Below are positions 7,954-25,873 of a stretch of DNA of 64,000 nucleotides, one piece after another. Under the pieces are notes generated by a model that was not told where the DNA came from, searched no databases, and saw only the letters and a program-made list of their open reading frames with translations. The DNA is from an uncultured Shewanella sp. (GTDB lineage: Bacteria > Pseudomonadota > Gammaproteobacteria > Enterobacterales > Shewanellaceae): assembly GCF_947495455.1 (NCBI RefSeq), contig NZ_CANLZC010000006.1:17280-81279 (forward strand), in the 5' to 3' direction. The stretch's first letter is position 1. Each line of letters begins with the position of its first letter. The translations under genes and the position numbers were made by a program.

Positions 7954-8919
7954 ATGTCATCAATTTTTAATAGGGTTAACGTGCGCGTGTTTGGGTTGGC
8001 TCTTTTGGCTTTGTCGTGTCCTGTTTGGGCACAAGAAGCCATTTCTGCGAAAGCTTGGCTAGAGAATATGAGTCAGGCCTTACACGAGAAAGAATACAAA
8101 GTTTCCGTTATTCAGCTTCAAGCTGAGCATATAAGTCCCCTTGTTTATATTCATGGAAAAGTGGATAGCCAAGAAGTGGCATTTCTTGAATACCTCAACG
8201 GTCCACCTCAAAGTGCTGTAAGAGTTGGGGATACAGTGAGTTTCATTGAATATCAACAGGCACCTTATAGCGTAAATGCAAAGCGGATCCCTGGCGTGCT
8301 GCCTGTTGGTTTTTCCAGTAATATCGATAGATTAGAGTCAGGCTATCAATTTGTGCTAGGAGGTCGCAGCCGTCTGGCTGGACGACCAAGTCAATTGGTG
8401 CGTTTAATTCCAAAAGATGATTTTCGATACGGTTATCAAGTTTGGCTAGATCTAGAAACCGCATTACCTTTGCGATACGATTTATTAACTAAAGATAAAC
8501 AGCTACTTGAGCAATTATTAGTGGTGGAGTTATTAGTGTTAGATAAAGCGCCTGCTATTTTAATTGAAGCTAAGAAACAAGAGTGGCCTTCCGTTGTGGT
8601 ACAAGCTTCTAGCTCTAAAAAAGAGCAATGGCACTTTAGCTGGTTACCTCAAGGTTTTACGGTACAGACAAATGATCAACATCGATTGATAGGTAATAAT
8701 GAATCGGTTGAATACATAGCATTAAGTGACGGTTTGGCCAATATATCAGTTTATATTTCTAAAGTGGGGGAAAGTCCTTTGCCTGAAGGTTTAGTGACGC
8801 GTAATGGTTTGGGGTTGTCGGCTGTAGTCGTGGGGGATCGTGAGGTGGTTGCTGTGGGTAAAGTGCCCAGTGAAACCTTAACGCGCATTGCGAAAAGTCT
8901 TGTTATTGGTGCCCATTGA
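7954..8919 (+). CDS. rseB: Sigma-E regulatory protein RseB/MucB
   Basis: Signal peptide, R.AGRP, YGY..WLD, SDGL..ISVY, VGKVP..T..RIA. Confidence 0.93.
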   Translation: MSSIFNRVNVRVFGLALLALSCPVWAQEAISAKAWLENMSQALHEKEYKVSVIQLQAEHISPLVYIHGKVDSQEVAFLEYLNGPPQSAVRVGDTVSFIEYQQAPYSVNAKRIPGVLPVGFSSNIDRLESGYQFVLGGRSRLAGRPSQLVRLIPKDDFRYGYQVWLDLETALPLRYDLLTKDKQLLEQLLVVELLVLDKAPAILIEAKKQEWPSVVVQASSSKKEQWHFSWLPQGFTVQTNDQHRLIGNNESVEYIALSDGLANISVYISKVGESPLPEGLVTRNGLGLSAVVVGDREVVAVGKVPSETLTRIAKSLVIGAH

Positions 8920-17083: not shown

Positions 17084-17434
17084 ATGAGCATAGAGAGAAT
17101 ACAAACGAAAGCGAGAATGAGCCGAATTGTAAAACATAATGGCGTCATTTATTTATGTGGTCAGGTTTGCCAAGATGCCACACAAAATATCACAGTGCAA
17201 ACACAAACAATGCTGGATAAAGTGGATGATTTATTAGCCGAAGCCGGTAGCGATAAAGCTCATATTTTATCAGCAACTATTTATATCAAAGATATGAAGT
17301 ATTTCAGTGAGATGAATGCCGTTTGGGATGCTTGGGTTCCAGAAGGGCATGCACCGGCTAGAGCGTGCGTAGAAGCTAAAATGGCAAGAGAGGCATTATT
17401 GGTTGAGATTTCTGTTATTGCTGCACAGAAGTGA
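17084..17434 (+). CDS. RidA/YjgF/UK114-family protein (Rid1/YoaB-like)
   Basis: [28 protein letters not shown] and LVEISVIAA motifs. Confidence 0.92.
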
Positions 17435-17482: not shown

Positions 17483-18199
17483 TTATTCCGTTATCATTAA
17501 ATACCCTCTGCTTAATCCTTCATTGAGATCGGCATTACTGATAATCGCTTGGTACAAGTCAGTTGTTTTTACCCAAATGGCAGGATATTTGAAACGAGAT
17601 ACATCCAATAATAAAAAGCGATCACTTTTTTTATCATAGGCCGCTAAAGGAGAGAAGTGACCTGATCCGATTTGTTTCAATGCTTGTCTATGATAATTAA
17701 CAATGATGAATTGTGTATCAGAGCTGACCGCATTAATTGCATCTTGCCGAAACTTGTTTTCGCTTATTTGTGTTCCACGATGAAGCTGAACATTTAATTT
17801 AAATGTCTTGATGGCATTGGATAATTCATCGATTGTCATTCCCCCCATGCTGACTTTAGCTGGTGTAGTAATATTGAGGACTTCTGGGGTAAAAAAATTA
17901 TCTTGTTCAAAAAGTTGGTAAGGGGCCAATAATAAAGAAGTGGGGCGTTGAAGGTTTGATGCATTTAATACCATAGATGCACTTGTGGGTCCGCAATAGG
18001 TCAATGTTTGCTGAGTCGCGAAATAAGGCATGAGATTAAAAACATCATTTTTATGCTGGCTTCGCTGTAAAAGATCCTTCCCTTCTATGGAGTTGAATGG
18101 AATGAGAGAATCATCAAGTGTTAGATCTGGCAGTGTTGCCGCTTGCAATGTCAGAGTCAGTAGAGATAAAAAAATAATAAGGGAAAATCTTAAACGCAT
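17483..18199 (-). CDS. Phytochelatin synthase-family (papain-like) protein with signal peptide
   Basis: Q..LTYCGPTS (Cys), GHFSPLAAYD (His), LLLDVSRFKYP (Asp); likely start MRLRFSLII at 18199. Confidence 0.88.
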   Translation of the reverse strand: MRLRFSLIIFLSLLTLTLQAATLPDLTLDDSLIPFNSIEGKDLLQRSQHKNDVFNLMPYFATQQTLTYCGPTSASMVLNASNLQRPTSLLLAPYQLFEQDNFFTPEVLNITTPAKVSMGGMTIDELSNAIKTFKLNVQLHRGTQISENKFRQDAINAVSSDTQFIIVNYHRQALKQIGSGHFSPLAAYDKKSDRFLLLDVSRFKYPAIWVKTTDLYQAIISNADLNEGLSRGYLMITE

Positions 18200-18644
18200 G
18201 TTGAACCTTGTTATTGAGTAAAAACTAATGTAATAGCAGACCATATTCGTCTGTAGGAAGTTTAGGTATTAGACTTTTGTCGTGGGCCTGATTAAGTGCT
18301 CTATGGGGTGAGATTAGCCAGAGTCTTTTCTATTTTATGAGAGAAAAGTGTTAACTTTAAACAAATACTTTACTTCATTACTGTCTAATTTTTATGTTTT
18401 TTTTGGTTTTTGGTGATAGTTTGTTTTTAACGGTCTTTTTTTGTTGGTATTTATCCTTCTTTTTTAAATTTTTTCAAATAAATTTGAGTGTGTGGAAGGT
18501 AATCACCATGATGCTTGTTTGTTGTTTATTTTTGTTATTTACTTTTCTCTAATGTTTTTATATTGATAAAATAGACTTAGCTTTTTCATAGAGTATAGCG
18601 TTTTTCTTTTCTACACTTAATATCATTCACTGTTTAGGGGAAGG

Positions 18645-19091
18645 GTGAGAATGACGTCAATTTATCAATTTATTTTTCATTTATTGTTATTGATGAATCT
18701 ACAACTGTTCAGCTTTGTATTGCAAGCGAAAGATTGCCAGCTACCCAATAGTATGAACGGGTTGACTATGATCCTATCTGCTGGTGAAGAATATAGTGAT
18801 ATTCCTCCTTTTGAAAATGATGTGGTTGAAATGACGTTTTCTAAAAAAAGTTACCAAGGGGTTGGTTTAAAAAAGAATCGACACTTTATCGGTGAGTATG
18901 TTTATCGTCGATTAGCTAATAATGTTGCTCAGGTTAGAACAAGAGAACTATTTGGCGCTGATATATTACAATACAGTTTAAACTTAGTTTGCCAGAGTGA
19001 CTTCGAAGGCTATTATATTTATGCTCCGAGTTCAGGAGAAACAGGCCCTCAGCTAGGCATTTTGATAGATCGTTATCTTATTGTTCAGTGA
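18645..19091 (+). CDS. Secreted 2-Cys beta-rich array protein 1 (subclass C)
   Basis: Signal peptide; DCQLP, GEEYS, GEYVY, LVCQSDFEGYYIY; start may be ATG 18651. Confidence 0.8.
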   Translation: MRMTSIYQFIFHLLLLMNLQLFSFVLQAKDCQLPNSMNGLTMILSAGEEYSDIPPFENDVVEMTFSKKSYQGVGLKKNRHFIGEYVYRRLANNVAQVRTRELFGADILQYSLNLVCQSDFEGYYIYAPSSGETGPQLGILIDRYLIVQ

Positions 19092-19287
19092 TTATGTCGA
19101 TAACCTAAGAAGTATGTCTTTAAACTGCTCTTGTAGGTTGTTTTTGCTAGGCGGCATTAAAGGAAAAATTTAGCCTTTGAATGTGCTCAATGTGTTCTGG
19201 TGGGCTGAAGAGAAAAAATACTGAATGAGTTAATTTCATCTACACTATTCTTAGCGTACTAAATTGTTTTAGTGATAAGGGTATAAC

Positions 19288-19704
19288 ATGAAGCAATTGT
19301 TTAGCTTATTTTTATTGTTTTATATAGGACAAGCTGTTGCAGATTCCTGTTCTATGCCAAAAAGTTTTGCTGGCTTGACTCTTTTAATCCGCGTGAATGG
19401 CAATTATTCTCCTGAAAATCCAATGGCAGGGACGTTACAAGAAATGACATTTAGTCGTTTGAATTTTAAAAGCACAATAATGAATACACGTGAGAGTGTT
19501 GAAGGATCCTATCGGTATACTCGTTTAGATACCAATTTAGCTCAAGTCAGTATTCGGCAGGGCACTGGAGATCAGTTATCTTTATATACAGAAACCTTTG
19601 TGTGTGAAACTAATACGACGGGATATTTTATTTTTAGCCAGACACAGGGGACAATTAAACCTGATATTCGCCAAAATACAGGGATTTATATTATTCGAAA
19701 ATAA
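19288..19704 (+). CDS. Array protein 2 (subclass A)
   Basis: Signal peptide; SCSMP, TLLIRVN, NPMAG, TFVCET, GYFIFSQT, RQNTGIYII. Confidence 0.85.
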   Translation: MKQLFSLFLLFYIGQAVADSCSMPKSFAGLTLLIRVNGNYSPENPMAGTLQEMTFSRLNFKSTIMNTRESVEGSYRYTRLDTNLAQVSIRQGTGDQLSLYTETFVCETNTTGYFIFSQTQGTIKPDIRQNTGIYIIRK

Positions 19705-19766
19705 TTATTGAGCTGCTCGGGAGTAAAGTCATTTTGAGTGCTTATAAACTGAGGTGGATTCGTTTG

Positions 19767-20201
19767 ATGGTGTTTAAAAAAATGGTATTTAAAAAAATAG
19801 CGTTAATCAGTCTATGTTTGTTGTCTAGTATTGTGATTGCTGATGATTGTATCTTGCCTGATAATCTTAACAAAAAACAAATATTATTTTTAGTCAGTGA
19901 GGTATACACACCGACAAACCCCGATGCTGGCAGTGTGATACAACTTAATTTTACGGATAAGAAAATCGTATCAACAAAATTAATTAAAGGGATTTTGAGT
20001 CAAGGTCAGTATGAGTATGAAATTATTGCACCTGGAGTGGCTTTATTGTCAGTTAAGTTGACTGAGGGGGATGATAGGGCACATTTTAGAACTGTGATGA
20101 TGTGTGAAAATGATTACAGCGGCATGTATATTTTTAGTCAATCTGAAGGGATCATTGAGCCAAGTAAAAGACAAAACACAGGGAGCTATATTATTGAATA
20201 A
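19767..20201 (+). CDS. Array protein 3 (subclass B)
   Basis: RBS gaggtgg before ATG 19767; DCILP, YTPTNPDAG, VALLSV, MCEND, RQNTGSYII. Confidence 0.85.
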   Translation: MVFKKMVFKKIALISLCLLSSIVIADDCILPDNLNKKQILFLVSEVYTPTNPDAGSVIQLNFTDKKIVSTKLIKGILSQGQYEYEIIAPGVALLSVKLTEGDDRAHFRTVMMCENDYSGMYIFSQSEGIIEPSKRQNTGSYIIE

Positions 20202-20253
20202 GATAAATGATCTTAGGTTATGCCAGTATGCGTCGCGTTAGGGGGGTTATGGT

Positions 20254-20697
20254 ATGCGCCAAATACGAGTGGCCATCGGCATGATGATGTGTGTTTTTAT
20301 TGCTTTTAATGGAAAAGCTTTACCCTTGACAAGTCCTAGTTGCACTGTACCTGAGCAGCTGCCAAAAAAGAAACTAGTCCTTGCTATAGATGAAGAATAC
20401 TCGGCCTATACCCCTGAAGTGATTGGTTTAATGCAACTCACTTTTGATAAAGAGACATTTGTTAATTACGTCATACAGAATAATTATTTTTTTCCGGGAA
20501 AATACACTTATCAAGTTATACACCCCGATTTGGCCATTGTCACGCTGACTGAAGTTGTGGGTGCGTTAGTGTCAAAGTACCAATTATTGCTGGTATGTAT
20601 CTCAGATATCGAAGGTTATTTTGTTTATCATTTAGAATATGGGGAAAGATTACCTAGAATGGAACATAATACTGGATTTTATGTATTGCGTGAGTAA
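20254..20697 (+). CDS. Array protein 4 (subclass C)
   Basis: SCTVP, DEEYS, GKYTYQV, LLLVCISDIEGYFVY. Confidence 0.85.
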   Translation: MRQIRVAIGMMMCVFIAFNGKALPLTSPSCTVPEQLPKKKLVLAIDEEYSAYTPEVIGLMQLTFDKETFVNYVIQNNYFFPGKYTYQVIHPDLAIVTLTEVVGALVSKYQLLLVCISDIEGYFVYHLEYGERLPRMEHNTGFYVLRE

Positions 20698-20720
20698 GTG
20701 GACGAATGTAGAGGAAGGTA

Positions 20721-21149
20721 ATGCGGCTATTGTTAATGTTGTTCACGGTTGTCATGTTGATGGGGCAAGGTAGAGCGAATACATGTGCATTGCCAACGAG
20801 TATCGTAGGAAAGACCATTCTGATTCGAGCAAATGGTGTGTATTCACCATTAAATACATTGGCAGACTCTATAATAGAATACGTATTTAAAGAGAAGACC
20901 TATGAGGTAACCATATTAAATAGTCGAAAAATGAATTCGGGTACGTATTTTTATCGAAGACTTAATCCAATGTTAGCACGTTTTAGTGTGATTTCGGGTT
21001 CTGGAGAGTCATTAACCTTATATTCTCAAACCTTTGTGTGTGAAACCAATAACATAGGTTATTCAATCTTTAGCCAAACAAAAGGTTTATATAAACCTGA
21101 TATTAAGCAAAATTTTGGTATATTCATTATTCAGGATCAAGATGAGTAA
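20721..21149 (+). CDS. Array protein 5 (subclass A)
   Basis: TCALP, TILIRAN, YSQTFVCET, GYSIFSQT, KQNFGIFII. Confidence 0.85.
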   Translation: MRLLLMLFTVVMLMGQGRANTCALPTSIVGKTILIRANGVYSPLNTLADSIIEYVFKEKTYEVTILNSRKMNSGTYFYRRLNPMLARFSVISGSGESLTLYSQTFVCETNNIGYSIFSQTKGLYKPDIKQNFGIFIIQDQDE

Positions 21150-21588
21150 ATTGAGTCAGTTAGTTTTATTTTTATGTTGGTTTACAAGTTGCTTCTATGG
21201 GCAAGCCGAGAGTAAACCGTGCGAATTACCGTTAACCTTATTTGGATATGATCTTTTTGCAAAAATAAGTGGGATGGATTATAAAACAGATTTAAATGCT
21301 ATGTCTTTTAGAAAATTATCCTTTTCTAATAAAAAGTTATATAATCAAAGTCTCATTTCAGGTGAGATGTTTTCAGCATTTTATACTTATCATCGTTTCT
21401 ATAACAATATCGCGATGATTAAAGTGTATCAAGATCCTAGGTTAACACGGCTTCTATATTTTGATTTGTTATTTTGTGAAACCGATTTAGTGGGTAAACT
21501 TATTTTTACACCGAGTAGTATTATTCCTTTTGACAATTTTGGTGACAAACAATTAACTGCTAAGTATGTCCTAAGGTCAGATGGTTAA
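21142..21588 (+). CDS. Array protein 6 (subclass D)
   Basis: ATG 21142 overlaps gene 5; PCELP, ISGMD, SLISG, NIA..VY, LLY, FCETDLVG. Confidence 0.82.
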   Translation: MSKLSQLVLFLCWFTSCFYGQAESKPCELPLTLFGYDLFAKISGMDYKTDLNAMSFRKLSFSNKKLYNQSLISGEMFSAFYTYHRFYNNIAMIKVYQDPRLTRLLYFDLLFCETDLVGKLIFTPSSIIPFDNFGDKQLTAKYVLRSDG

Positions 21589-21625
21589 ATAAGTTAATGT
21601 GAGTGATAAATGGCAAGGATGAAAA

Positions 21626-22051
21626 GTGATATCTAGATTGGTAATTATGCTAATATTGATGATAAATTTTTTTTATGAGCGAGCATTAGCGTGTGAGTTG
21701 CCTAGTTCATTAGCAGGGAAAAAAATCATTTTTAGTATCTCAAATTACTATACTCCTAATAACCCCATGGCTGGCACATTACTTTTATCAGAATTTAAAG
21801 CTAAAACGTACCAATTGGTCGTGTTAGATACTGATACTTCATATAGTGGTGCTTATTCTTATCAAAAGATAACACCTAATTTTGCACGTTTTACTGTTAT
21901 AGAAAGGCAAAATGTTGATATGACATCATATCGCTATTCAAAAACACTCACTTGCCAAACAGATAGGATGGGGTTTGTCATATTTAAATTTATTGGAGGG
22001 GTGGATCTAGATGCCCCCCATCACGATATCGGCACTTATTTTATTCAGTAG
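21626..22051 (+). CDS. Array protein 7 (subclass F)
   Basis: ACELP, FSISNYYTPNNPMAG, FARF, YSKTLTCQTD..G.VIF, DIGTYFIQ. Confidence 0.85.
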   Translation: MISRLVIMLILMINFFYERALACELPSSLAGKKIIFSISNYYTPNNPMAGTLLLSEFKAKTYQLVVLDTDTSYSGAYSYQKITPNFARFTVIERQNVDMTSYRYSKTLTCQTDRMGFVIFKFIGGVDLDAPHHDIGTYFIQ

Positions 22052-22098
22052 CTAGCAATGTTATATGATGTTTAGCTACGTTCAATATTACCTAGGAG

Positions 22099-22539
22099 GT
22101 GACATTGAAGTGTATTTTATGGTTAATATTACTAATAAATATGTTTCACATAGCAATACTAAAAGCATGTCAGTTGCCTGAAAGTTTGGTGGGAAAAAGA
22201 ATTTTATTACACGTTTATGGTTTGGCTGCTGAAACTAATCCTCTTGCGGATAATATAGTGATGATGCATTTTAATCAGAGGGACTATCAAGTAATGATTT
22301 TGGATACGGGGAAAAAATCGGTCGGTACTTATTCTTATCAACGATATGAGTTTGATCTGGCTGAATTAAGGATAAAAGAGAATGTGTCTTCTGAAGGCAA
22401 AACGGTTATGGCTGATTATACTAATACTTTTGTTTGTCAGAGCGATACATCAGGTTTATATATTTTTAATGGTATTGAAGGGACTGCCTATCCACAATAT
22501 TGGCAACATTCTGGTCGATATTTTATTCAAAGTCATTAG
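22099..22539 (+). CDS. Array protein 8 (subclass E)
   Basis: ACQLPESLVG, YGL...TNPLA, DLAEL, YTNTFVCQSD, GRYFIQ. Confidence 0.85.
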   Translation: MTLKCILWLILLINMFHIAILKACQLPESLVGKRILLHVYGLAAETNPLADNIVMMHFNQRDYQVMILDTGKKSVGTYSYQRYEFDLAELRIKENVSSEGKTVMADYTNTFVCQSDTSGLYIFNGIEGTAYPQYWQHSGRYFIQSH

Positions 22540-22588
22540 ACGCTGCTTGATGAATACAGTATGGAATAATAGAAAGGAGAGGAGAACG

Positions 22589-23014
22589 ATGATTAAATTA
22601 TTATTAGTATGTTTAATCGCATGTCCTTTCATTGTAGTACAAGCGTGCCAATTGCCGAGTACATTAGCCGAGCGGCAGCTCTATATTGTCGTTGATCAGT
22701 TTTATACGCCAGACAATCCTAAAGCAGGCAAGGTGACATTATTGCAATTTTTCAAAAATGGTATTGAACAGATCACATTAATGAATAATCAAGTTAGTGA
22801 AGGGACATACCAGTATGAATTACTAGCTTCTAATGTTGCGTTATTAAGTTATCAACTTACTCATGGAGCTGAATGGACAATATCAAAATTGCTGCTTGCT
22901 TGTGATACATCGATAAAAGGGAAATTTATTTATAGTCAAACTAAAGGTTCGGTGAAACCCAATATTCGACAAAATACCGGAAGTTTTATCATGTTAAAGC
23001 AACCCAAATTTTGA
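22589..23014 (+). CDS. Array protein 9 (subclass B)
   Basis: Strong RBS aggagagga before ATG 22589; ACQLP, VDQFYTPDNPKAG, VALL, ACDT, KGSVKPNIRQNTGS. Confidence 0.85.
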   Translation: MIKLLLVCLIACPFIVVQACQLPSTLAERQLYIVVDQFYTPDNPKAGKVTLLQFFKNGIEQITLMNNQVSEGTYQYELLASNVALLSYQLTHGAEWTISKLLLACDTSIKGKFIYSQTKGSVKPNIRQNTGSFIMLKQPKF

Positions 23015-23087
23015 ACTATAGTTATAATAAGTGAAGTGACTTTTTGCCTGTAGAATATACGATAATGAGGGGAAGATAATACTTGAT

Positions 23088-23549
23088 ATGTATCGATTGA
23101 CTGGGCAGGTATTATCCTTTTTTATTTTCTTGATAAGCTCTTTGGCTTATGCAGCAGATGATACAGATTGCCATGTACCTGAAAAAATTGATCAATCAAC
23201 ATTGCTTTTTACCGTCGATGAAGAGTATTCCATTTTTAGTCCAGAGACTGTGGGCTTAATAGAGGTCGTGTTTAATCAAGGCAGTCTTGAGACTAGGATT
23301 ATACAAGAGCGCCTGACATTTGTCGGTCGATATGTTTATCAAGTACTTGAAAAAGATTTTAGCATGATCAAAGTCAGCGAGTTAGACGCGAATACCGTAT
23401 CGAATTATTATCTTTTGCTAGTGTGTAGCAGTGATATTGAAGGCTATTATATTTACCGTTTACAGGGGGGGGAAGACATGCCAGGTGTGAGTCATTGGAC
23501 TGGGCGATATATTATTCGTCTGCCACAAAAGCCCTTAGGTGAAGAATGA
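23088..23549 (+). CDS. Array protein 10 (subclass C)
   Basis: DCHVP, DEEYS, GRYVYQV, LLLVCSSDIEGYYIY. Confidence 0.85.
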   Translation: MYRLTGQVLSFFIFLISSLAYAADDTDCHVPEKIDQSTLLFTVDEEYSIFSPETVGLIEVVFNQGSLETRIIQERLTFVGRYVYQVLEKDFSMIKVSELDANTVSNYYLLLVCSSDIEGYYIYRLQGGEDMPGVSHWTGRYIIRLPQKPLGEE

Positions 23550-23962
23550 GACGTGCGGCTGTATTGCTCATGCTTGTGCTTATCGTTAAACACAGTTGGG
23601 CTGAAGAATGCCATCTACCCAATAACTTATTGGGGTTAACCTTATTGCTTCGAGTGAATAGAATACATACACCTGATAACCCTATGGCGGGTATGGTGCA
23701 TGAGTGGTTTTTTGGAAAAAAACATTATCAAATCACCCTATTGAATACAAGGAAGACAGCTAAAGGCACCTATCAATACACGCGCTTTACTGAGCAACTT
23801 GCACGCCTGAGTGTGCAAGAAGGCCCAATTGATGAGCGTTCTGTCTATTCTATTACCTTTGTTTGTGAGACTGAGTACATTGGCTATTATATTTTTAGTC
23901 AAACAATAGGCGATTCTCAACGTGATGTGCGCCAAAATACCGGAGTGTATATTATTCAGTAA
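23546..23962 (+). CDS. Array protein 11 (subclass A)
   Basis: ATGA overlap with gene 10; ECHLP, TLLLRVN, NPMAG, YSITFVCET, GYYIFSQT, RQNTGVYIIQ. Confidence 0.85.
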   Translation: MRRAAVLLMLVLIVKHSWAEECHLPNNLLGLTLLLRVNRIHTPDNPMAGMVHEWFFGKKHYQITLLNTRKTAKGTYQYTRFTEQLARLSVQEGPIDERSVYSITFVCETEYIGYYIFSQTIGDSQRDVRQNTGVYIIQ

Positions 23963-23975
23963 ACGGAAGGGCATT

Positions 23976-24419
23976 ATGCGTACTGTTATCGTATTACTGG
24001 TTTTAATGGGGATGTTGTTTTCTTTTAAAGTGAGCAGTCAGTCATGTCAGGTACCTGCTCATTTAAATGGAAAAAGTGTATTGCAGGAGATCACTGGCAT
24101 GGATGCTAGAATTAACCCTGAAGCGGATAGCTTGCGCTCATACGTCTTTTTGAATGATAAAATAAACGATGTTAGTTTGATCACAGGAAAGAAGATCAAT
24201 GCTAACTATCATTACCAAGTATTGGCACCCAATATCGCGCAGTTAGAGGTGTACAGTTTTAAAGATAAGCAAAATTTGTTGTATCGAGCTATTTGGGTGT
24301 GTACCACCAATACAGTTGGTTATTTTATTTACACCCTCATTAACGGCGAGTATTCAGTCAATGTTACCCCGCATCAAGCTTCTGGCGTGTATATCATTCA
24401 ACAAAGTCAATCTGATTGA
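23976..24419 (+). CDS. Array protein 12 (subclass D)
   Basis: ATG 23976 after ggaagg; SCQVP, ITGMD, SLITG, NIA..VY, LLY, WVCTTNTVG. Confidence 0.85.
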   Translation: MRTVIVLLVLMGMLFSFKVSSQSCQVPAHLNGKSVLQEITGMDARINPEADSLRSYVFLNDKINDVSLITGKKINANYHYQVLAPNIAQLEVYSFKDKQNLLYRAIWVCTTNTVGYFIYTLINGEYSVNVTPHQASGVYIIQQSQSD

Positions 24420-24489
24420 TTGGGTCGCTGTATGGGTTGGGTATTGAGTTTATTTAGAGTGGGTTTAGAGTGGAATTAAGGGCCATGTT

Positions 24490-24939
24490 ATGGGGCATCT
24501 ATTTGTTCTAATAAGTCATACTATGCTGTTTTTTAGCCTTTCTTGGCCTGTTTTGGGCAGTGATTGTACATTACCTAAAAGTTTAAATGGCGTGACATTC
24601 TTATTTAAAATCAGTGAGAGTTACACTCCCATGAATGTGATGCCGGGCAATCTCCTTGAGTCGAGGTTTTCTGAGCGGCATTATACAACAGAAATATTAA
24701 ATACTGGGGAGAAAGTGAGGGGAGTATATACTTATCAGCGTTATCACTCTCAGTTTGGCCGTTTTCATGCTAGTGAGGGGACTGGGGAGCAATTAACTCA
24801 GTACGCTAAGACATTAGTGTGTAAAACAGACAAGGTAGGTTATGTCATTTTTAGTCAAAGTATAGGAGTGATTAAGCCTAATGTTCGCCAAGATACTGGT
24901 ACCTATGTCATCACATCTTTACCAGCTAGGAATCAATAA
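24490..24939 (+). CDS. Array protein 13 (subclass F)
   Basis: DCTLP, FKISESYTPMNVMPG, FGRF, YAKTLVCKTD..G.VIF, DTGTYVI. Confidence 0.85.
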   Translation: MGHLFVLISHTMLFFSLSWPVLGSDCTLPKSLNGVTFLFKISESYTPMNVMPGNLLESRFSERHYTTEILNTGEKVRGVYTYQRYHSQFGRFHASEGTGEQLTQYAKTLVCKTDKVGYVIFSQSIGVIKPNVRQDTGTYVITSLPARNQ

Positions 24940-24941
24940 GA

Positions 24942-25403
24942 ATGAATAAACACTATGGTAGTCATCGGGGTCGTCATCAGAAGAGCTCACTGAGATTATT
25001 TGGTGTTAGTCTTGTTCTTTTGTGTTTTTCTAGTGTGAGTATGGCTTGTGAATTGCCTGAATCATTATCGGGTAGACAACTTTTGTTACGTATTTATGGA
25101 TTAGTGTCTGCTACCAATCCGTTTGCTGAGAGTGTATTGGAAGTGACTTTTAGTGAAACGACATATGTACTTAAAGACTTAAAAACTGGTCAAGGCTATG
25201 AAGGGCAGTATCGTTATCGACGTTTTGAGAAAGATTTGGCGCAATTGACAGGGTTAGAAAAAGTCGGAAAAAGCAAAATGCAATATACGGAAACTTATGT
25301 GTGCGAAACCAATAAAACGGGTTATTACATTTTTAGTGTGAAGCAAGAAGGGATTGGCCCTAAGGTTCGCCAAAATACTGGGCGGTATATTTTTCAGCAG
25401 TAA
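24942..25403 (+). CDS. Array protein 14 (subclass E)
   Basis: ACELPESLSG, YGL...TNPFA, DLAQL, YTETYVCET, RQNTGRYIFQ. Confidence 0.85.
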   Translation: MNKHYGSHRGRHQKSSLRLFGVSLVLLCFSSVSMACELPESLSGRQLLLRIYGLVSATNPFAESVLEVTFSETTYVLKDLKTGQGYEGQYRYRRFEKDLAQLTGLEKVGKSKMQYTETYVCETNKTGYYIFSVKQEGIGPKVRQNTGRYIFQQ

Positions 25404-25429
25404 TGTAAAGGTAAAAATAGGGAAAACGT

Positions 25430-25873
25430 ATGATTAAGTTGACTGGGGTCATGCTGAGTTTTTTGTTGTTTTTTGGGTTTTCCCATGTCATAGCGAAAGA
25501 GTGCCATTTACCTGAAGTCCTATCAAATAAACGTATTTTGTTGGAAGTTGATCTATTTTATCAGCCGTCTAATCCCGATGCTGGTGGGTTAAAAGCACTG
25601 ACATTTTCAGGGAACATTATCAGTGATATCACCTTAGAAACAGGGGAGAATAATCAAGGGACGTTTCAGTATACTCGGCTCAAGCCTTATGTTGCTGTGC
25701 TAAAGGTGGCATTGAACCAAGGCCCTAAGATGAGTGAGTCGGAAATCACGCTTGTGTGTGATACGCCCTTAACTGGATTGTATATTTACACTCAAGTTAA
25801 AGGCTCAATTAAGCCAGATCTACGTCATAACTTAGGAAGCTATATGATAACGAACAAGATCGATAAGCCTTAA
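25430..25873 (+). CDS. Array protein 15 (subclass B)
   Basis: ECHLP, VDLFYQPSNPDAG, VAVL, LVCDT, KGSIKPDLRHNLGSY. Confidence 0.85.
   Translation: MIKLTGVMLSFLLFFGFSHVIAKECHLPEVLSNKRILLEVDLFYQPSNPDAGGLKALTFSGNIISDITLETGENNQGTFQYTRLKPYVAVLKVALNQGPKMSESEITLVCDTPLTGLYIYTQVKGSIKPDLRHNLGSYMITNKIDKP

Follow-up and report, generated by a model that had tools for sequence, protein, structure and literature searches.

Calycins are typically monomeric binders (PMC4933562, PMC3367933), with a signature in which the Gly-x-Trp of strand A packs against an Arg of strand H (PMC3367933). Barrels of this type also include the metalloprotease inhibitors (MPIs; Inh/AprI type), which are Sec-exported to the periplasm (PMC4933562), and the VtrA/VtrC bile-salt receptor, whose calycin-like barrel works only as a hetero-complex (PMC4933562). 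Here we describe a family of small exported barrels encoded by 15 co-oriented tandem open reading frames (ORFs) in a 64,000-nucleotide stretch (the window, to whose numbering positions refer unless a contig or locus handle precedes them) of an uncultured Shewanella sp. (contig NZ_CANLZC010000006.1, positions 17,280 to 81,279). The array occupies positions 18645-25873 of the plus strand, with ORFs of 138-165 codons each, and is organized as a triplet followed by two six-gene blocks, [C-A-B][C-A-D-F-E-B][C-A-D-F-E-B]. These genes firmly define a narrowly distributed new family of exported two-cysteine barrels with six positional classes and three deep types. On balance, we lean towards reading it as a clade-restricted, cassette-grown family of lipocalin-like barrels that might serve as separate periplasmic binding modules.

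Each array product bears an N-terminal hydrophobic Sec signal peptide ending in an AxA-type site, and 0-5 residues past that site comes an invariant Cys-x-[LVM]-Pro. The mature domain spans 117-126 residues (~118 aa, ~13 kDa), with a second invariant Cys located ~85 residues after the first; in family numbering C22, P25, and C107 are invariant. The N-terminal Cys probably pairs with the strand-6 Cys in a disulfide, and the proteins are likely to reside in the periplasm. A lipoprotein reading was considered and rejected, because the residues ahead of the invariant Cys form no lipobox and the AxA-type sites precede it. AlphaFold2 models of gene 11 (A class; mean predicted local distance difference test score [pLDDT] 89.4) and gene 6 (D class, the most divergent; 88.9) both display a signal helix followed by eight consecutive strands that form an eight-strand up-and-down barrel; this eight-stranded antiparallel +1 up-and-down topology belongs to predicted rather than solved structures. 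Foldseek neighbors in the PDB include MoaF (4q51), Tp0751 (5jk2), nitrophorins, the Bacteroides lipocalin-family structures 4gzv/4iab, and designed barrels, with matches overall spread across lipocalins, nitrophorins, fatty-acid-binding proteins, avidins, and designed barrels. The modeled fold indicates a calycin/lipocalin-like barrel without a close solved relative. A Pfam scan that included distant family members recovered no match at E <= 1, the lipocalin and MoaF models included; NCBIfam and PADLOC scans of the members, again with distant ones, gave no real match, and a PDB sequence search with the family profile returned nothing below E = 1.

With the lipocalins (Blc, YxeF, 4gzv/4iab, and the nitrophorins), which are among its top Foldseek neighbors, the array family shares a small exported eight-stranded +1 up-and-down barrel whose open end bears a long first loop, as well as a stabilizing, here predicted, disulfide. 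However, it differs from them in showing neither a Pfam lipocalin match nor the Gly-x-Trp/Arg signature, in ending with strand 8, in the predicted pinning of the N-terminus by its disulfide, and in its multi-class cassette organization; we do not file it as a lipocalin. The best structural matches of the gene 11 model, viz., MoaF and the lipocalin-fold domain of Treponema pallidum Tp0751 (E = 6e-3 and 8e-3; template modeling [TM] score ~0.5), are both non-canonical bacterial lipocalin-like barrels of unclear function, but they share 10-13% identity and no profile match with the array family; MoaF itself has two domains, and Tp0751, a lipoprotein, has an N-terminal region that is disordered. 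For MoaF (PF10703/PF17409), which has no Pfam match in the family, the sole link is the Foldseek neighbor 4q51 at 12% identity.

Comparison of the mature domains brings out a higher-order periodicity. The best match lies exactly six genes away for genes 4, 6, 7, 8, 9, and 10 (31-42% identity; 42% for the pair 4/10, 31% for 6/12, 41% for 7/13, 40% for 8/14, and 41% for 9/15), while gene 5 is closest to gene 2 (50%) and then to gene 11 (47%), and gene 12 presents a near tie. Mean identity at an offset of six genes is 38.0% over the whole array and 40.3% when only genes 4-15 are counted, versus 27-30% at offsets 1-5 and 7-8. In a maximum-likelihood tree of the 15 proteins every proposed group falls on one side of a branch, with five label changes, which is the minimum and which none of 200 label shuffles equaled; its supports are moderate (37-100, several of them weak) and rise upon addition of orthologs. 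The sequence-only reading had proposed that each gene most resembles the one six positions away and that a phylogeny of the mature sequences would yield six groups; both are borne out by the identity peak and the tree, and the class motifs that it quoted were all found in the translations. A larger maximum-likelihood tree of 67 sequences, orthologs included (supports given as ultrafast bootstrap/SH-aLRT), recovers each positional class as one clade, with 14 label changes, again the minimum, versus 53.7 when shuffled.

The first triplet comprises gene 1 (18645..19091; class p1, C-type), which codes for a signal peptide and a two-Cys barrel and forms a clade with the position-1 orthologs of three species (100/99), with the dispersed single copies as sister group; gene 2 (19288..19704; class p2, A-type; clade 97/98), whose ortholog in the related genome G021 shows 86% amino acid identity; and gene 3 (19734..20201; class p3, B/D-type; clade 100/100), for which 19767 is the likelier start, the database gene call P0006 beginning with MVFKK. 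Block I (genes 4-9) and block II (genes 10-15) each contribute one member to class C (gene 4, 20254..20697; gene 10, 23088..23549; 100/95), class A (gene 5, 20721..21149; gene 11, 23546..23962; 77/78), class D (gene 6, 21115..21588, likelier start 21142; gene 12, 23922..24419, likelier start 23976, gene call P0008; 99/97), class F (gene 7, 21626..22051; gene 13, 24490..24939; 100/99), class E (gene 8, 22099..22539; gene 14, 24942..25403; 99/92), and class B (gene 9, 22589..23014; gene 15, 25430..25873; 100/92), with genes 12 to 15 placed by the class tree and gene 10 branching outside the class C genes that block I has in every species. A 210-codon ORF at 22382-23014 corresponds to gene 9 with an upstream extension that overlaps gene 8; translation most likely begins at the ATG at 22589, giving a product with a normal signal peptide. 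Spacing between the array genes ranges from -41 to +73 bp, save for 196 bp downstream of gene 1. The G+C content of the array is 0.34-0.39 versus ~0.41 in the surroundings. A scan for promoters and terminators in the array gave counts at background, with no internal terminator signal above it; the genes are probably co-transcribed from one or few operons.

Above the positional classes, a deep C-type clade unites position 1, the single copies, class C, and the first position of dispersed four-gene cassettes (q1; 98/99), and a deep B/D-type clade unites class D, position 3, class B, q3, and q4 (95/81), while the A-type is an unresolved grade of position 2, classes A, F, and E, and q2. The four cassette positions q1-q4 (98-100) and the single copies (100/96) are themselves well supported, and from the clade membership of q1-q4 the four-gene cassette therefore reads [C-A-D-B]. 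All multi-gene units place a C-type gene first, an A-type second, and a B-type last. The earlier assignment of genes 1-3 to C, A, and B thus stands at the level of the deep types (C-like, A-like, and B/D-like), but the clades C, A, and B to which genes of the six-gene blocks belong do not include them. At the DNA level, the diagonal that had been expected at an offset of ~2.8 kb is absent from a dot plot: only five short high-scoring segment pairs were recovered, with 72-78% identity, at the 3' ends of genes 2, 5, and 11 of the A type and of gene 14. These segments lie at 19565-19696, 21001-21132, 23855-23957, and 25283-25397, and elsewhere the genes can no longer be aligned; with blocks this diverged in DNA, only the proteins reveal the periodicity. 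The conserved 3' ends may be due to the C-terminal FVCET...RQNTGxYII segment being strongly constrained, or to gene conversion long ago.

A profile of the 15 proteins gave 26 matches in the genome of this Shewanella, which holds 24 intact copies, or 25 counting a pseudogene: the 15 array genes, two four-gene cassettes (C88 6476-8305 and C48 6579-8492), a single gene (C3 68746-69249), and a frameshifted pseudogene (C14 130-559). The last of these belongs to the single-copy (C-type) subgroup, lies at the start of its contig, and has one TGA and one TAA in its frame. The family is present in 4 of 148 species genomes of the genus, namely this one and three others (G021, G160, and G165), each with 14 copies, comprising nine genes at the syntenic site, a four-gene cassette syntenic with that on C88, and a single copy syntenic with that on C3. 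Both the nine-gene array and the four-gene cassette recur in a fifth lineage, recovered from a Logan assembly, whose best match at every position is the same-position gene of another species. The arrangement [C-A-B][C-A-D-F-E-B] at this site and the dispersed [C-A-D-B] are common to all carriers, and the single copy at the C3-type locus is found in this genome and in all carriers. The six non-redundant classes claimed by the sequence-only reading are accordingly real, being kept as same-position orthologs in four species and the fifth lineage, and rather than shuffled order or variable content the homologous loci show identical content and order in four lineages. Farther afield, a single copy occurs in 1 of 24 genomes of the same order and in 1 of 400 gammaproteobacterial genomes (an even draw across 321 genera). 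A profile search of 1.84 billion cluster representatives recovered only 78 proteins. Those distant relatives that have names are single-copy 'hypothetical proteins' of Pseudomonas.

These comparisons firmly show that gain and loss proceed by whole cassettes and that class order is conserved across lineages and loci; given repeating cassettes whose order is conserved across species, the cassette is the unit of inheritance. Compared with the other carriers, the uncultured Shewanella has two additional whole cassettes (+6 and +4 genes) and the pseudogene. In a tree of the six concatenated classes, with the four-gene cassettes as outgroup, block II falls outside block I of all four species (98/98), and forcing the two blocks of this genome together costs 32 log-likelihood units (approximately unbiased [AU] test, p = 4.8e-5), by which a recent in-lineage duplication of block I into block II is rejected. 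Both blocks sit on long branches (0.73 and 0.76 versus ~0.10 for G021/G160), but we accept their separation because long-branch attraction would tend to join them, not part them. Block II therefore arose in one of two ways: by an old duplication, with at least two later losses of the copy, or by acquisition of a whole cassette from an unsampled relative, with integration in tandem. The blocks are old, sharing ~40% amino acid identity, and the extra four-gene cassette on C48 shows a divergence similar to that of block II. Of the proposed duplication of a six-gene cassette as a block, whole-cassette gain and loss is upheld, but genes 10-15 are no simple in-place duplicate of genes 4-9. The accompanying idea that genes 1-3 are a third, internally deleted copy fails: the triplet occurs in every lineage and on a deep branch, with gene 1 sister to the single copies and not to genes 4/10, and is therefore old. 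The array resembles segmentally duplicated tandem paralog arrays in that the closest relative of a gene sits at a distance of one period and in that gain and loss affect entire blocks; here, however, the blocks are old, each member has orthologs across species, and the class order recurs at dispersed loci.

A comparison of window positions 19288-23014 with the corresponding loci of other carriers (L011, L015, L018, and L030) reveals mosaic ancestry. The closest relative of this genome is G160 at positions 2-3 (synonymous divergence, dS, 0.67-0.92), and at positions 4-9 G021 and G160 are mutually closest (dS 0.39-0.81), with the copies of this genome highly divergent; the fifth lineage is 89% identical to G160 at position 1 and nearest to G165 at the remaining positions. 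The sequence relationships suggest interspecies recombination inside the array.

The ratio of nonsynonymous to synonymous divergence (dN/dS) is 0.09-0.24 in all nine ortholog pairs between G021 and G160, the least saturated species pair, from which we conclude that purifying selection maintains the genes; it is firmly shown for every class tested. The flanking housekeeping genes have dN/dS of 0.01-0.11, with dS from 0.45 to >2 between species. Amino acid identity between species is 45-86% for the array genes as opposed to 81-99% for the flanks: the array genes evolve faster than their neighbors. Conservation within the barrel is partitioned by class. Nearly all members share C22, P25, F56, G74, Y76, Y78, C107, G113, and I116, along with a C-terminal P-x-x-R-Q-N-T-G-x-Y motif, whereas loop 1 (residues 38-50, the Y-x-P-x-N-P-x-A-G region) has a within-class entropy of 0.3-0.7 bits at most positions and a high entropy between classes. 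Up-and-down barrels have loops 1 and 7 on the same side, and on this topology the conserved RQNTG loop before the last strand would adjoin the class-specific loop 1 at one end of the barrel.

The predicted meeting of a conserved loop with a class-specific one is what leads us to a reading in terms of non-redundant binding modules. In this reading, a family of three deep types (C-like; A-like, including F and E; and B/D-like) grew by the copying of whole cassettes, and the uncultured Shewanella gained its second six-gene and second four-gene cassettes. All barrels would have the same scaffold and binding end, the loops particular to each class would adapt them to different ligands or target proteins, and their joint expression would come from one or few operons. 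Since single copies exist in all carriers, in Pseudomonas, and in other taxa, one member can work alone, and we tentatively propose, at somewhat less than even confidence, that the array products are class-specialized periplasmic binding modules acting separately. Several observations weigh against this picture. The Foldseek matches have a probability of ~1.0 but weak E values (5e-3 to 1e-1) and TM scores of 0.44-0.6. The Gly-x-Trp of calycins is absent, there being no conserved Trp in the 67-sequence alignment, where Gly at position 30 and Arg at 129 are common and the Trp position is occupied by Thr, Lys, or Arg. The C-terminal helix of lipocalins is also missing, as the proteins stop 1-12 residues beyond strand 8. 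No RNA runs containing the locus were found, though one coral metagenome holds 5% of the sampled words. At seven loci, the distant single-copy relatives have inconsistent neighborhoods (a Mag/alpha-2-macroglobulin operon, a rhomboid gene, ChaC, PPE genes, a mobile element, a flagellar cluster, and a short contig with unannotated neighbors), and with contexts so unrelated an inference by guilt-by-association is not justified. Finally, the retention of C-, A-, and B-type genes in order in every multi-gene cassette and their gain and loss as whole cassettes fit co-assembly equally well.

Co-assembly is the first alternative, namely that the products form a periplasmic or extracellular hetero-oligomer of fixed composition, built on a C/A/B core to which D, F, and E subunits may be added, and that its cassettes are inherited whole as the subunits are needed together. 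The constant C-, A-, B-type order across three kinds of locus and five lineages and the gain of whole cassettes in this genome would suit such an assembly, as would probable translational coupling of some genes (the start of gene 11 overlaps the stop of gene 10 by 4 nt, and gene 14 begins 2 nt past gene 13). The sequence-only reading had taken the preserved order as evidence for an ordered assembly; however, block duplication alone yields that order, which consequently does not testify to assembly. Moreover, cassette sizes of 1, 3, 4, and 6 genes fit no single stoichiometry and argue against a fixed one, single-copy members are conserved in all carriers and are the only form among distant relatives, and each model is a closed eight-strand barrel that needs no partner strand. 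The nearest precedent, in which a calycin-type barrel is an obligate heterodimer (VtrA/VtrC; PMC4933562), differs in that the VtrC barrel is open and needs a strand of its membrane-anchored partner, which has a different fold, for completion, whereas the array models are closed barrels of a single family. We consider a hetero-oligomer of fixed composition unlikely.

A second alternative draws on the genomic setting. The main array is flanked by acpS, an Mpo1-like gene, RidA, a phytochelatin-synthase-like (PCS-like) gene, CorC, and CcsA. The left edge of the island is a RidA/L-PSP-like gene (17084..17434, plus strand; PF01042), followed by the PCS-like gene (17483..18244, minus strand, divergent from the array; PF05023, E = 2e-60), which codes for an exported papain-fold enzyme. 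Orthologs of this enzyme with 79-86% identity are limited to the four species that carry the array and always adjoin it, while 16 other Shewanella genomes have only weaker matches (34-48% identity). In four family-negative Shewanella genomes the RidA-like gene, the PCS-like gene, and the array are all missing between the Mpo1-like gene and CorC, with Mpo1-like directly abutting CorC or itself absent; the three components therefore constitute one clade-specific insertion. In this genome, G160, and the fifth lineage, the four-gene cassette has a peptidase-S51 gene on one side and an extracellular contractile injection system (eCIS) cluster on the other, and in G021 the eCIS-side genes adjoin it with the S51 homolog a few genes off (C88:6476-11460 in this genome; L012:4382-7947, L016:3602-7250, and L031:4005-9125 in the others). 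The end of the eCIS cluster beside the cassette encodes a DUF4157/eCIS_core protein, a 1013-aa protein, and baseplate components. The adjacency may reflect functional linkage or inherited synteny.

Two single-copy loci outside these sites add to the setting. The Pseudomonas relative (8001-8429 in each of L021-L024, four independent assemblies) lies ~225 bp downstream of a MagC/alpha-2-macroglobulin/DUF2300/YfaP operon on the same strand. In the fifth Shewanella-like lineage (L027:6206-7423), an extra single copy (P0015) sits directly 3' of a gene for ChaC, a glutathione-degrading enzyme; this is a second pairing of the family with a glutathione-processing enzyme after the PCS-like neighbor, and it may be coincidence.

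Such contexts invite the idea of an inhibitor or immunity panel, in which periplasmic hydrolase inhibitors, with classes diversified by target, act against the PCS-like enzyme of the cell itself or against enzymes of competitors or hosts. Staphostatins, which are lipocalin-like eight-strand barrels that bind and block their enzyme, are encoded beside a papain-fold protease, and here a papain-fold PCS-like gene always adjoins, and is co-inherited with, the array; staphostatins are cytoplasmic, however, unlike the exported array proteins. The faster evolution of the array genes relative to the flanks in both identity and dN/dS, the conserved class-specific loops, the placement of the Pseudomonas relative directly after the alpha-2-macroglobulin (Mag) operon, and that of the four-gene cassette beside the eCIS cluster in several lineages would all accord with this idea, for which the MPIs, as small eight-strand barrels that bind and block an enzyme, offer a model of a periplasmic calycin-type inhibitor (PMC4933562). 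Yet the family resembles neither Inh nor staphostatin nor any family in PADLOC or Pfam: neither MPIs nor staphostatins appear among its sequence or top structural matches, Inh/AprI membership finds no Pfam or PDB sequence match, and there is no serralysin/ABC-exporter neighborhood among the flanking genes. Nor, apart from the PCS-like gene, does the main array adjoin any toxin, type VI secretion system (T6SS), or protease gene, and the other distant relatives lie in unrelated contexts (rhomboid, ChaC, flagellar cluster, mobile element). Nine to 15 inhibitors for one enzyme are implausible, and the arrays have 9-15 genes each where MPIs and staphostatins have one. As a T6SS or contact-dependent inhibition (CDI) orphan immunity array, the locus shows no effector-like ORF in or beside it and no PADLOC match, and in place of the variable, shuffled content of such archives it has the conserved composition and order described above. 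We regard an inhibitor panel as improbable, to about the same degree as the hetero-oligomer.

Still more doubtful is the combination of both lines, whereby each cassette would specify a dedicated periplasmic or extracellular complex of three to six different calycin-like barrels (with a C/A/B core) tied to the PCS-like enzyme, e.g., for the capture or handover of gamma-glutamyl or thiol compounds; if true, this would be the first bacterial hetero-oligomer made solely of paralogous lipocalin-like barrels. The last alternative, a functionless expansion in which redundant paralogs drift and the periodicity is a fossil of segmental duplication, could draw on the lower G+C of the array, the long branches of both six-gene blocks in this genome, and the pseudogene on C14, but we consider it very improbable in the face of 24 other copies with intact frames, signal peptides, and both cysteines, position-by-position orthologs kept across species whose synonymous sites are near saturation, and the low dN/dS.

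Taken as a set of separately acting binding modules or as parts of an assembly, these barrels make up a family missing from Pfam, NCBIfam, and PDB, whose multi-copy expansion is confined to a handful of marine Shewanella. Higher-order paralog arrays are already known as an evolutionary pattern; what we have here is a lipocalin-like family with an unusual cassette organization, which provides an unusually clear bacterial case of whole multi-gene cassettes, rather than single genes, being duplicated, dispersed, and retained. Should the classes differ in the ligands or targets that they bind, they would constitute a natural set of small disulfide-stabilized barrels with diversified loops; if they co-assemble, they would represent a new kind of calycin complex. 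Under either reading, the four-gene cassette is a compact experimental system.

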